DNA of 64,000 nt from the NCBI GenBank assembly GCA_965219695.1, contig CBDCOJ010000032.1:517747-581746 (forward strand), given 5' to 3'. The position numbers were made by a program, and so were the translations under genes. Below the pieces are notes generated by a model. That model had not been told where the DNA came from. It did not search any database and was given only the letters and a program-made list of their open reading frames with translations. Shown here piece by piece: positions 39,432 through 43,241 of the stretch. Position 1 is the first letter of the stretch. Each line of letters opens with the position of its first letter. This DNA comes from Candidatus Poribacteria bacterium. Its GTDB lineage: Bacteria > Poribacteria > WGA-4E > WGA-3G.

Positions 39432-40193
39432 ATGCGATTGAAAGATAAAGTTTTGTTAATCGGTGGTGCAGGCTCAAACATGAGTCGGGCATCAGCCTTA
39501 CTTTTTGCACAAGAAGGTGCGAAGGTGGCACTTGCCGCACGCACAACAGAGAAGATGGAAGAGACAGCGGAACGTATCCGCGCGAACGGTGGCGACGTGT
39601 TGACGCATCAAACCGATTTGACGGATGCCGCACAAGCGGAATCTCTTATTGATGCTGCAGTTGCGGAATTTGGTGGTATTGACTGTTTTATCCACGCTGC
39701 GGGAGGGTATTTCTCAACTGAACACGATATTACTGCCATGGATCCTGAGTATTGGGAAGGTGCGCTGCAAAACAACTTACGAACACTTTTCAACCCTGTC
39801 CGCTGTCTTGTACCGATTTTAGAGAAACAGGGTGGTGGATGTATTATCACTATATCAGCAGGTGAGCGAGTGCGGCAAGATGCGAACGCTGCTTACGCTG
39901 CAGCAAAATCGGGAATGGTGGCAACAGCAAAAAACCTTGCCAAAGAGTTGTATGATAAAAACATCCGTGTCCATGCGTTATGTCCGGGGATAATCTGGGA
40001 CCCGTTGCCAGAAGGAAAAATCGCTCCAGTCACAACGCAATTAGAACGTCTTGGTAATCCGATTGATATAGCGTATGCTGCGCTGTGGTTATGTTCAGAC
40101 GAAGCGGCGTGGGTTACAGGATTGGAGTTGACGATTGATGGTGGTGATTCGTTGTTCATTGATTCGCCAATTCGGCGGGAGGTTTTGGCTTAG
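39432..40193 (+). CDS. SDR-family oxidoreductase
   Basis: A modified glycine motif (IGGAGSNMSRA) and the catalytic YxxxK (YAAAKSG). Confidence 0.75.
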   Translation: MRLKDKVLLIGGAGSNMSRASALLFAQEGAKVALAARTTEKMEETAERIRANGGDVLTHQTDLTDAAQAESLIDAAVAEFGGIDCFIHAAGGYFSTEHDITAMDPEYWEGALQNNLRTLFNPVRCLVPILEKQGGGCIITISAGERVRQDANAAYAAAKSGMVATAKNLAKELYDKNIRVHALCPGIIWDPLPEGKIAPVTTQLERLGNPIDIAYAALWLCSDEAAWVTGLELTIDGGDSLFIDSPIRREVLA

Positions 40194-40523
40194 CGGAGTT
40201 TTTACATGTTTTTAGTGATTGGTGTTCGTTAACAACTTACCTTCGGCTATCGGCAGGTAAATAATATGTTCGAGATGCAAAGGGAACTTAGCAACTACAA
40301 GTTCTTTTTTTACTAACTATTGCGCTGATAGCCTTTTTGTTTGAAAAACTTCGTGCAGGGTGTTAAAATAGTGTGAAAAGAAATAAGATATATTGAGAAA
40401 TGAGACATACAGCAATAATTGAACTTGCAAATAACGATAGACTCAACTTAGTAAGATCAGGTTTTATGAATCCTGAAGAAGTATGTAGAATTACCGTACT
40501 AAAATAGGTAAACCGAGGGAAAT

Positions 40524-40922
40524 ATGAGGAGCGTTTTTTGTATTTTGATCATAGTGTTTATGTGTCTGATAAGCACAATAGGCGTATGTGACTTAACACC
40601 TACAGAGGTGGGACAACAAGATGCTCAACAAGATGTTCCCCGTCCGAAATGGTTTTTAGCAGGATGTATTAGTGGTGGTTTTTTCTTATGGCTTATCAGT
40701 GATAATTCTGTGGCGCGCGATGCGAAAAAACCACCAGAGGTTGACATTAATAATGTCCCACACTTGCTCGGAAAACCACCTGAATATGTTGAGAAATATG
40801 TTACATCTTACCAAGCGGAATCGGTGCGTATAAGTTCTCAATGGGCGGAATATGGTCGGATGACAGGCAGCGGAATAACAATAGCGGCTATCCTTGGTTA
40901 TATGATTAGCAAAAGTTTTTAA
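40524..40922 (+). CDS. hypothetical membrane protein
   Basis: 132-aa ORF with three predicted TM segments, followed by an AT-rich hairpin. Confidence 0.35.
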   Translation: MRSVFCILIIVFMCLISTIGVCDLTPTEVGQQDAQQDVPRPKWFLAGCISGGFFLWLISDNSVARDAKKPPEVDINNVPHLLGKPPEYVEKYVTSYQAESVRISSQWAEYGRMTGSGITIAAILGYMISKSF

Positions 40923-40976
40923 GTAGAAATTAGGTGAGTTTCGAACGCCTATTTTTAATAGGCATAGTCTAAATCA

Positions 40977-41810
40977 ATGTTCTACCTAACACGGCAATCC
41001 GCCTTTGAGGCATCCCATTACAATCGGATTCCCGAATTGAGCGATGCCGAAAACTTTGAACTGTTCGGTGCCGCAGCAAATCCAAATAGCCACGGACACA
41101 ACTACGTGCTTGAAGTGATGGTCAAAGGGGATGTAGATGCCGATGATGGAATGGTCATCAATTTAACGACGTTAGATGCGTTGTTGAAAACAGAAGTGCT
41201 TTCGAATTATGATCATAAGCACCTGAACAAACAACATCCTGTGTTCAGCAAAAATCCACTACTACAACCGACATGTGAAAACATCACAATTGAAATATGG
41301 CGACGACTCGCTCCCTCTTTCCCCGATGGATTGCTCCATCGGGTTCGGCTCTATGAAAGTTCTACGCGATTTGCCGACTATTACGGAGATGATATCATGG
41401 TTTATCTTACTAAGGTTTATGAGTTCAGTGCAGCGCATCGTCTACACAGCCATGCACTTAGTGATGAAGAAAACCGAGACATCTTCGGGAAGTGCAATAA
41501 TCCTGCTGGGCATGGGCACAACTACGTAATTGAAGTCACTGTAAAAGGTGACGTAGATGCAAAAACTGGACTGGTCGCGGGTTTGAATCTGCTTGACGAA
41601 GTAGTCGAAAAACAGGTCTATGCACGCTTTGATTACAAACACCTCAATCTTGATACGCCGGAATTTGAGAAACTTAATCCGACATCTGAAAACTTTGTAA
41701 AGGTACTTTGGGATGTGTTGGAACCGAATTTACAACCGGTGGTTTTACACCGTCTCCGCTTGCGAGAAACACCCAAAAATCATTTTGATTACTATGGAGA
41801 ATCTTCTTAA
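40977..41810 (+). CDS. tandem two-domain 6-pyruvoyl-tetrahydropterin synthase (PTPS)
   Basis: Two PTPS folds. Domain 2 carries [29 protein letters not shown], nearly identical to the animal PTPS active-site segment, with the catalytic Cys present. Domain 1 has [14 protein letters not shown], so the His triad is kept but the Cys is lost. Confidence 0.8.
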   Translation: [277 protein letters not shown]

Positions 41811-41813
41811 TTT

Positions 41814-42404
41814 ATGAATACTGAACAAGAAAGTGAAGCTGATCATAAGCCTGAATTGTTAGAGTCTCTTTTCGGACAGATTATTGAAAATATAGGTGAA
41901 GACCCGAACCGTCAAGGTTTGGTAAAAACACCACTCCGTGCTGCAAAAGCATTAGAATTTCTTACGAGCGGCTATCATCAGGATGTTAATAAGATATTAA
42001 ACGAAGCTATCTTTGACGAGAATTGTGACGACATGGTTATCGTCAAGGATATTGAATTTTTTAGTCTCTGTGAGCACCATATCCTCCCGTTTTGGGGAAA
42101 GTGTCATGTAGGCTATCTTCCACTGAATCGGGTTATTGGTCTTAGTAAGATTCCGAGAATTGTGGATATGTTCTCTCGACGCTTGCAGGTTCAAGAACGC
42201 TTAACACGCGAAATTGCCGAAGCATTGGAGGCAGCATTGAATCCAGGAGGCGTTGCAGTCGTAATGGAGGCACAACACATGTGCATGATGGCGCGTGGTG
42301 TAGAAAAGCAAGCCTCAAAGATGACAACAAACGCTATGCGGGGCGCATTTCGGGAAGATAGTTCTACGCGCGCTGAGTTTCTTAGATGCGTCCAAGTTTC
42401 TTAA
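41814..42404 (+). CDS. folE: GTP cyclohydrolase I
   Basis: 196-aa protein with the FolE core ([12 protein letters not shown], zinc-binding Cys/His) and QERLT. Confidence 0.9.
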
Positions 42405-42420
42405 AGGTAGTAGGTCACTC

Positions 42421-42458
42421 CGCCAAATGCTATAGGCGCATTTGGCGTTAATTTGGTG
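42421..42458. repeat. family B palindromic repeat copy (ccgccaaatgctataggcgcatttggcg)
   Basis: A near-identical copy of the element at 26067-26103, in the folE/SDR intergenic spacer. Confidence 0.8.
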
Positions 42459-42488
42459 TGCCGTCCACCCTTTCTCTGTAAAAAATAA

Positions 42489-43241
42489 ATGTCCACACAA
42501 AACAAGACTAACGAATTACAAACAAATAGTCTCAAAGGAAAAGTAGCGGTTGTCACTGGTGCGTCAAAAGGCATCGGCAAAGCAATAGCAGGTGCCTTAG
42601 CAGATGCCGGAGCAAAGGTAGTCCTCGCTGCCCGTACACCTAAGACCGTAGAGCAAGCCGCAAGCAATATTAGAGAGACAGGCGCGGATGCAATCGCAGT
42701 CCCGACTGATGTCACAGACGTTGACGCTGTGCAAAACCTCATCCAACGCACATTGGATACCTATCAAAACTTGGATATATTGATAAACAATGCAGGAAGC
42801 GGTAAATTTGGAACTGTTGCTGATTTTGATCCGTCAGATTGGGATAACGTCATCAATTCCAATTTGAAGGGTGTTTACCTCTGTGCAAAATATGCGCTTC
42901 CGCATCTATTGGCACAAGGTGGCGGACAAATTATTAACGTGCTTTCTATCGCAGCGAAGGTCGCTTTTCCCGCTTCAAGCGCATATTGTGCAGCAAAAGC
43001 AGGCGCGCTTGCTTTTACAAAGGTATTGGCTGCTGAAGTGCGGGACAAAAACATACGAGTGACAGCAGTGCTACCCGGTTCCGTTGAAACACCTTTTTGG
43101 GATGATATTCCACAACATCCCGATTTTGAAAAGATGCTCAAACCGGAGCACGTAGCAAACGCTGTTCTGTCCGTATGCCAGCAACCGACTGGCATGGTAA
43201 CCGAAGAAATCGTTGTTATGCCTCCGCTCGGTATTTTATAG
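42489..43241 (+). CDS. SDR-family reductase (sepiapterin-reductase-like by context)
   Basis: TGASKGIGKA motif and catalytic YCAAKAG. It lies immediately downstream of the PTPS and folE genes. Confidence 0.7.
   Translation: MSTQNKTNELQTNSLKGKVAVVTGASKGIGKAIAGALADAGAKVVLAARTPKTVEQAASNIRETGADAIAVPTDVTDVDAVQNLIQRTLDTYQNLDILINNAGSGKFGTVADFDPSDWDNVINSNLKGVYLCAKYALPHLLAQGGGQIINVLSIAAKVAFPASSAYCAAKAGALAFTKVLAAEVRDKNIRVTAVLPGSVETPFWDDIPQHPDFEKMLKPEHVANAVLSVCQQPTGMVTEEIVVMPPLGIL

Follow-up and report, generated by a model that had tools for sequence, protein, structure and literature searches.

In animals, tetrahydrobiopterin (BH4) is made by GCH1, PTS and SPR, and the second of these enzymes, the 6-pyruvoyl-tetrahydropterin synthase (PTPS), assembles into homohexamers from single-domain chains, each of which carries the catalytic Cys, the Asp-His pair and the zinc site. 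The PTPS family comprises subfamilies with diagnostic motifs, which are CxxxxxHGH for PTPS-II, CxxxHGH for PTPS-I/QueD and ExxHGH for PTPS-III (PMC5041015), and PTPS-II accounts for about 21% of the sequences of the family (PMC9894224). According to the accounts given in PMC5041015 and PMC3546692, a dual-domain bacterial PTPS was described as being responsible for BH4 synthesis by Kong et al. (2006, FEBS Lett 580:4900). Chlorobium tepidum forms L-threo-BH4 (tepidopterin) with a single-domain PTPS-II and a sepiapterin reductase (cSR). Here, we analyzed a 64-kb stretch of DNA from Candidatus Poribacteria, a sponge symbiont; this whole stretch is referred to as the window, and coordinates relate to it unless another locus is named. 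The window encodes a tandem PTPS that is followed by the GTP cyclohydrolase I FolE and by a short-chain dehydrogenase/reductase (SDR), termed SDR-B, and the sequence evidence suggests, with a probability of roughly 0.7, that these three genes constitute an operon for the de novo synthesis of a BH4-type unconjugated pterin in this symbiont. This is a known kind of system, as dual-domain PTPS, the frequent PTPS-II subfamily, and the Chlorobium pair of PTPS-II and sepiapterin reductase precede it. Our analysis adds the complementary degeneration of the catalytic triad in the two PTPS modules, three-domain variants of the enzyme, the conserved cSR-like SDR partner, and a probable systematic misnaming of these proteins as QueD.

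The bPTPS-II of Synechococcus sp. PCC 7942 is like the Poribacteria protein in that it has two PTPS domains in one polypeptide, belongs to the PTPS-II class and is linked to BH4, and in neither case is BH4 synthesis the task of a separate PTPS-I/QueD paralog. The differences are that the host in our case is a non-phototrophic sponge symbiont and that the Poribacteria gene shares its operon with folE and an SDR gene. The Synechococcus protein was compared by its description, and the Asp-Tyr of the C-terminal module and the complementary Asp-His of the N-terminal module, which are not known to have been described before, were worked out here for the Poribacteria protein; the primer-encoded termini of the Synechococcus PCC 7942 PTPS-2 had no match among the 449 proteins that we collected. 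With the animal pathway, the locus would share the same three chemical steps, and the C-terminal PTPS module is about 43% identical to the human and rat enzymes and has the same Cx5HGH segment, whereas the tandem architecture departs from the animal homohexamer, and animal SPR is of another SDR subtype that anchors the pterin by an Asp, unlike SDR-B. From the Chlorobium pathway, the locus differs by its two-domain PTPS and by having no glycosyltransferase nearby, and the stereochemistry of the Poribacteria product is a prediction only. cSR and SDR-B have in common the S-Y-K triad, an NNAGxGxFG segment, the equivalents of Phe99 and Trp196, and a short C-terminal tail, but in its overall fold SDR-B is no nearer to cSR than to FabG-like SDRs. 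QueD together with FolE resembles the Poribacteria system in the T-fold superfamily, the substrate dihydroneopterin triphosphate and the folE adjacency; its Cx3HGH motif, its single domain of about 120 aa and its clustering with queC/queE are all absent from the Poribacteria PTPS locus. The bimodular T-fold enzymes urate oxidase, GTP cyclohydrolase IB and QueF type II also have two modules per chain, a short beta4-beta1 hairpin and active sites at interfaces, and a whole-chain Foldseek search gave a weak match of the tandem PTPS to urate oxidase, but the chemistry and the sequence family differ.

The PTPS-FolE-SDR-B unit of Poribacteria

The tandem PTPS gene (40977-41810, + strand) encodes 277 aa with two PF01242 domains (E 8e-60 in Pfam), of which the N-module comprises aa 1-140 (40977..41396) and the C-module aa 141-277 (41397..41810). 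Only 3 nt lie between its stop codon and the start of folE (41814-42404, + strand), whose 196-aa product is a GTP cyclohydrolase I of type IA, with 254 bits for TIGR00063 (cut-off 181.6), an E value of 7.5e-75 for PF01227, and the zinc-site motifs CEHH (aa 86) and HMC (aa 155). SDR-B (42489-43241, + strand; 250 aa, adh_short) follows after a spacer of 84 nt. The positions and the common strand of these three genes, and of the two ORFs 5' of them that are described below, agree with the first-pass annotation, an earlier reading of this DNA from the letters alone, and the domains of the three genes were confirmed by Pfam and NCBIfam; judged from their scores, the gene matches in the window are high-scoring protein homologies and no chance matches. 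In the spacer between folE and the SDR-B gene, a consensus scan found a hairpin (42421-42447, + strand) with a perfect 10-bp stem, CGCCAAATGC...GCATTTGGCG, and a weak T-tract, which could be a weak or partial terminator or an attenuator that decouples the expression of the reductase from that of PTPS and FolE. A promoter scan gave no enrichment over shuffled sequences, and an Rfam scan of the window returned nothing at the gathering score, a preQ1 or tetrahydrofolate riboswitch included; two sub-threshold chance matches lay in the locus.

The conservation of this arrangement was assessed by tblastn of the window proteins against 80 related genome loci, all from Candidatus Poribacteria, with PTPS protein identities of 83-95%. 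PTPS followed by FolE was found in 80/80 of these loci, and SDR-B was encoded 3' of folE in about 76 of the 80, with identities of 68-93%. The genes 5' of PTPS vary by lineage and encode, for example, a rhodanese or GFO/IDH/MocA oxidoreductases. This also applies to SDR-A (39432-40193, + strand; 253 aa, a classical SDR of the Pfam family adh_short), which is present in only three of the 80 loci, namely in the three nearest relatives. Since the upstream genes differ between lineages and SDR-A is so rare, the conserved unit is PTPS-FolE-SDR-B, with SDR-A outside. The first-pass annotation had counted SDR-A as a member of the pathway, which did not hold: besides its rarity, SDR-A has just 29% identity to cSR over 198 aa and lacks both the NNAG motif and an equivalent of Trp196, and we therefore rejected it as a second pathway reductase.

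SDR-A belongs to a variable block, the other genes of which (35568-39325, + strand) encode a HAD hydrolase, a YfcH/ThyD-like epimerase, a class I/II aminotransferase and a DUF6575 protein. This block was found solely in the loci L001, L002 and L004, with DUF6575 solely in L004, and it is syntenically unrelated to the pterin operon. Directly 5' of PTPS, an open reading frame (ORF) of 132 aa (40524-40922, + strand) encodes a small membrane protein that has hydrophobic segments at either end and in the middle and that matches no family in Pfam and NCBIfam. It recurs in about 7 of the 80 loci, with 90-94% identity in L002 and L004, and with 56-60% identity at the same position in L011, L013, L065 and L075, and we treat it as outside the pterin unit. 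A tandem PTPS of 88% identity (P0018) has been deposited in NCBI and UniRef as a protein of the sponge Geodia barretti; this entry almost certainly represents Poribacteria symbiont DNA within a sponge genome assembly.

As to the subfamily, the C-module carries the PTPS-II signature, C173-NNPAG-H179GH181 (C173 peptide at nt 41493-41519), and the corresponding N-module segment AANPNSHGH (A33 peptide at nt 41073-41099) fits none of the three subfamily motifs; both peptides are those that the first-pass annotation had quoted. In both modules, Asn at position −4 from HGH deviates from the QueD signature, and Pro at −3 deviates from that of PTPS-III. In HMMER comparisons, the C-module matched rat and human PTPS with an E value of 1e-31 and E. 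coli QueD with 1.7e-8, and the N-module alone had its best match in rat PTPS (1b66, E 7.7e-26), with 6.7e-5 for E. coli QueD. A crude neighbor-joining tree, the kind of check that the first-pass annotation had proposed, places the C-halves together with single-domain PTPS-II and rat PTPS. The AlphaFold2 model of the tandem protein (predicted local distance difference test score, pLDDT, 93.7; predicted template modeling score 0.89) was used for Foldseek searches, in which each half superposed on human PTPS with a template modeling (TM) score of 0.95 and a root mean square deviation of 1.2 A, and in which no bimodular PTPS structure was found in the PDB. By its sequence, the tandem protein belongs to the PTPS-II type and not to the QueD type, in line with what the first-pass annotation had proposed.

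SDR-B has the Gly-rich NAD(P)-binding motif TGASKGIG, an INNAG motif and the catalytic residues S153, Y166 and K170. With cSR (2bd0; this sequence was obtained through a chimeric query), it shares 35% identity over the full length (E 1e-48). In the Chlorobium enzyme, Phe99 and Trp196 are indispensable for the swivelled binding of sepiapterin (PMC7520308), and these residues align with F107 and W204 of SDR-B. The two aromatics and the S153/Y166/K170 triad are present without exception in 78/78 Poribacteria SDR-B orthologs and likewise in an alignment of 43 sequences, among them relatives of about 50% identity from other lineages, and no other SDR of the PDB had both aromatics among the alignments displayed. 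For the C-terminal 65 aa, the substrate-specifying part, 2bd0 was the top match in the PDB (E 1e-7, the next one 4e-5). Together with the synteny described above and the coupling in other phyla described below, these residues strengthen the earlier suggestion that the downstream SDR is a candidate sepiapterin reductase, in our case one of the Chlorobium type. As SDR-B has the pterin-stacking Phe and Trp of the Chlorobium tepidum enzyme, the L-threo isomer is a possible product.

In the pathway that we propose, FolE would convert GTP to 7,8-dihydroneopterin triphosphate, from which the bimodular zinc-dependent PTPS-II would remove the triphosphate and rearrange the side chain to yield 6-pyruvoyl-tetrahydropterin. 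With NAD(P)H, SDR-B would then reduce both carbonyls of the side chain, resulting in tetrahydrobiopterin.

Catalytic residues in the two PTPS modules

When the catalytic residues of rat PTPS were mapped onto both modules, the zinc ligands His23, His48 and His50 had equivalents in the N-module (H14, H39, H41) as well as in the C-module (H154, H179, H181), and so did Glu107 (E101 and E238) and the pterin-anchoring Glu133 (E127 and E264). Cys42, in contrast, corresponds to A33 in the N-module and to C173 in the C-module, and Asp88-His89 corresponds to D79-H80 in the N-module and to D219-Y220 in the C-module. The Cys42/Asp88/His89 triad is thus complete in neither module, but only across the N- and the C-module. 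In rat PTPS, the triad is itself said to be intersubunit, with Cys A42, Asp B88 and His B89, as reportedly described by Ploom and colleagues in 1999.

Among 48 homologs with at least 64% identity, H14, H39, H41, D79, H80 and E101 of the N-module are invariant (48/48) and E127 is nearly so, and position 33 is never occupied by Cys (0/48). In the C-module of the same homologs, position 220 is His in 22, Tyr in 20 and Phe in 6 cases. From these conservation patterns, the zinc pocket of the N-module appears to be under selection. The first-pass annotation had regarded the N-half as a pseudo-enzyme that keeps the zinc-binding His residues and has lost the Cys; retention and loss are as it said, but the label sits badly with zinc ligands, Glu residues and an Asp-His pair that are invariant or nearly so, and D219-Y220 in the C-half, at the position of the catalytic Asp88-His89 of the rat enzyme, had been overlooked.

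The same pattern was seen at larger evolutionary distance. From 50%-identity cluster representatives of 1.84 billion proteins, the best 150 were taken, of which 102 had two PTPS domains and 14 had three. The two-domain proteins with an intact zinc/Cys site in the C-module were then counted for complementarity: in 21 representatives the C-module has no Asp-His, and the N-module has kept it in 21/21; in 27 representatives it is the N-module that has no Asp-His, and the C-module has kept it in 27/27. Not a single representative has lost Asp-His in both modules (Fisher p = 6.6e-6). In a crude neighbor-joining tree, the 21 proteins without Asp-His in the C-module are spread over at least 13 separate clades. 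The complementary losses of Cys on the one side and Asp-His on the other suggest, at the level of sequence comparison, a composite active site that is formed across modules.

A protomer of the opposite ring contributes the His of the triad in both QueD (His71'') and QueD2 (His68''), and in the rings of the PTPS family, which can have three or four members, neighbors pair beta1 with beta4' (PMC9894224). In the secondary structure of the AlphaFold2 model, beta4 of the N-module spans residues 131-135 and beta1 of the C-module residues 141-154, with a join of five residues in between, and because of this short join the two modules of one chain are, according to the model, almost certainly ring neighbors, as in urate oxidase. 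The catalytic center would then lie in the C-module, with the three zinc-binding His residues, Cys173 and Glu264, and the Asp-His pair that activates the Cys would be D79-H80, contributed by the N-module of another chain that lies in the opposite ring. This would result in one composite active site per module pair, instead of one live and one dead enzyme, and the reciprocal site, consisting of the N-module zinc pocket and Tyr220 of the C-module, would be silent for PTPS chemistry.

Tandem PTPS in other lineages and the genomic surroundings

The tandem form of PTPS is spread over at least seven phyla, with examples in Poribacteria, Omnitrophota, Armatimonadota, Zixibacteria, Nitrospirae, Binatia and Domibacillus; a tblastn search of a plasmid collection gave no match. 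In view of this spread, of the dual-domain PTPS known since 2006 and of the share of PTPS-II in the family, the statement of the first-pass annotation that such a route is uncommon in bacteria was too strong. In four metagenomic loci (L084-L087), an SDR gene begins at most 25 nt past the tandem PTPS gene, and the encoded SDRs are 48-54% identical to SDR-B and have kept Phe and Trp. Two of these loci have a metallophosphatase gene 5' of PTPS (L084, 4600-5883; L085, 3568-4887; coordinates of the respective loci, here and below), the product of which is a metallophosphoesterase of about 430 aa, L087 has no such gene, and L086 has tandem PTPS, SDR and an aldo-keto reductase in sequence (5001-7600). 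In Domibacillus sp. PGB-M46 (L082, JAKGCR010000033.1, 2487-6813), the order is SDR, a GGDEF/EAL protein and tandem PTPS; the SDR has Phe and Trp, and the intervening protein has a HAMP-GGDEF-EAL architecture. This order is reminiscent of pterin-controlled c-di-GMP signaling of the PruA/PruR/DcpA type.

Three-domain PTPS proteins of about 400-420 aa were found mainly in Zixibacteria (P0187, P0194, P0208, P0222, P0225, P0229, P0233, P0234, P0238, P0307 and P0333-P0345). Their last domain has the zinc ligands and the Cys, usually without Asp-His, and domains 1 and 2 have kept Asp-His. Such a chain could represent a whole pseudo-trimeric ring in one polypeptide. In the Zixibacteria locus L083 (CP070777.1), FolE, a three-domain PTPS (6001-7236) and an SDR are encoded in a row, and this SDR has Val and Trp at the two aromatic positions.

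The remainder of the window consists of housekeeping genes, which include those for Obg, ProB, GuaA, RNase E/G, the ribosomal protein L27 and two-component systems. The L27 domain corresponds to residues 79-158 of a mechanically called 165-aa ORF that begins with TTG (28884-29381, minus strand), and the true start is probably further downstream. Next to the SDR-B gene, at 43371-45494 (+ strand), lies a gene for a secreted-looking protein of 707 aa that combines leucine-rich repeats with a GHL15-like glycosyl-hydrolase region and, at the C-terminus, two dockerin repeats. Counterparts were found only in L010 (82%) and L002 (42%), and the gene looks like a lineage-specific insertion encoding a eukaryote-like repeat protein. 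It is followed by an 896-aa ORF (45535-48225, minus strand) with two complete CNNM-CBS-CorC/HlyC units, in which PF01595 and PF03471 match two stretches each. As this position is occupied in locus L016 by two individual ORFs (453 and 448 aa), the long ORF is an in-frame fusion of adjacent paralogous transporter genes.

Alternative readings and implications

Several observations weigh against a dedicated BH4-type operon with a composite PTPS active site. FolE may double as a housekeeping folate enzyme, and the window contains no gene for a BH4-consuming enzyme or aromatic amino-acid hydroxylase, for a pterin-4a-carbinolamine dehydratase or for a pterin glycosyltransferase. With full-length SDR-B as query, 2bd0 ranks only 9th in the PDB (133 bits), behind, for example, the FabG-type 2uvd (154 bits), and the database names of SDR-B orthologs are all generic. 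With the AlphaFold2 model of SDR-B (pLDDT 88), the top 50 Foldseek matches in the PDB were generic SDRs that did not include 2bd0; as Foldseek is non-discriminating among SDRs, we dropped the fold search as evidence in either direction. With respect to the composite site, the AlphaFold2 model of the tandem PTPS is that of a monomer and has no oligomer geometry, and H222, which is nearly invariant in the 48 homologs and lies just two residues past Y220, might replace the missing His inside the C-half, which would weaken the case for a donation in trans.

Part of these observations could also be accommodated by a different product. The locus might form another reduced pterin, such as a lactoyl- or sepiapterin-type intermediate, a monapterin-like compound or another side-chain variant, or a pterin that serves as signal or pigment instead of as hydroxylase cofactor, with SDR-B being a generic pteridine or carbonyl reductase. 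The identity of SDR-B to the Chlorobium enzyme is indeed just 35%, that enzyme is not its closest relative in the PDB overall, the BH4-dependent enzymes are missing from the window, and the GGDEF/EAL protein flanked by tandem PTPS and SDR in Domibacillus as well as the aldo-keto reductase after the SDR in one lineage (L086) are in agreement with such a role. We nevertheless regard this as unlikely, as the product of PTPS-II is 6-pyruvoyl-tetrahydropterin, for which the known enzymatic fate is the reduction to BH4, and as strict conservation is seen for both residues by which the Chlorobium enzyme positions sepiapterin. Still less probable, and in our opinion hardly tenable, is an entry module of queuosine (preQ0) biosynthesis, in which the tandem protein would be a QueD-type 6-carboxytetrahydropterin synthase that functions together with FolE, next to an unrelated SDR. 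QueD and FolE genes do cluster frequently (PMC5041015), the orthologs are named "6-carboxytetrahydropterin synthase" by NCBI, and the whole protein scores 118.6 bits with the QueD equivalog model TIGR03367, which is above the cut-off of 89.25. The single modules, however, score only 61-63 bits, which is below the cut-off and similar to rat PTPS (66 bits), and the QueD label is thus probably an artefact that arises because two domains, each of which remains below the cut-off, sum past it. Furthermore, CxxxHGH is missing from both halves, and the SDR partner is kept across phyla. Neither queC, queE and queF nor a preQ1 riboswitch are present in the 64-kb window, where an adjacency of queC/queE, together with a grouping of the PTPS inside the QueD clade, had been named beforehand as a finding that would contradict the biopterin reading; folB, folK and folP are likewise absent from the window, and no queC, queE or queF was found among the called genes of the loci L081-L087.

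Apart from the product, it can be asked whether the N-module contributes to catalysis. It could be a purely structural pseudo-enzyme, in which case the C-module alone would be active and would obtain its base from H222 or from a neighboring C-module. Such an arrangement would be compatible with the absence of the catalytic Cys from the N-half of all close homologs and with the near-invariance of H222. In addition, 26 of 78 representatives have no Asp-His in the N-half, often along with a loss of zinc ligands, and in these the C-half is complete, so that such proteins work without catalytic residues of the N-half. In the subfamily of the Poribacteria protein, however, it is the N-half that shows invariance at the zinc ligands, at D79-H80 and at E101, with near-invariance at E127, and the His89 equivalent of the C-half is not conserved. 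Together with the perfect complementarity in the 48 informative representatives, this makes a merely structural N-half a rather doubtful option. A composite site, in turn, is one component of a more far-reaching proposal that we put forward tentatively and would not expect to hold in all its parts: the multi-domain PTPS may have an obligate division of labor, and L-threo-tetrahydrobiopterin may be made with the cSR-like reductase and possibly be exchanged with the host. The last module would provide the zinc/Cys/Glu site in this arrangement, and an upstream module would donate Asp-His across the ring-ring interface. The pairing geometry, C:C or N:C, would have been fixed repeatedly in evolution, and the Cys-less pocket of the N-module would be a second pterin site that is either non-catalytic or differently catalytic.

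The proposed operon assigns a probable BH4-type cofactor pathway to the Poribacteria, a widespread uncultured phylum of sponge symbionts, which no paper that we found in the searchable literature had linked to pterin synthesis. Beyond this phylum, hundreds of tandem PTPS genes from many phyla have probably been misnamed QueD, with their SDR partner being annotated generically, and a renaming would shift metabolic reconstructions from queuosine to biopterin. Finally, the complementary loss of Cys and Asp-His offers a testable case in which a gene fusion may have turned the inter-subunit site of a homo-oligomer into a hetero-module site.

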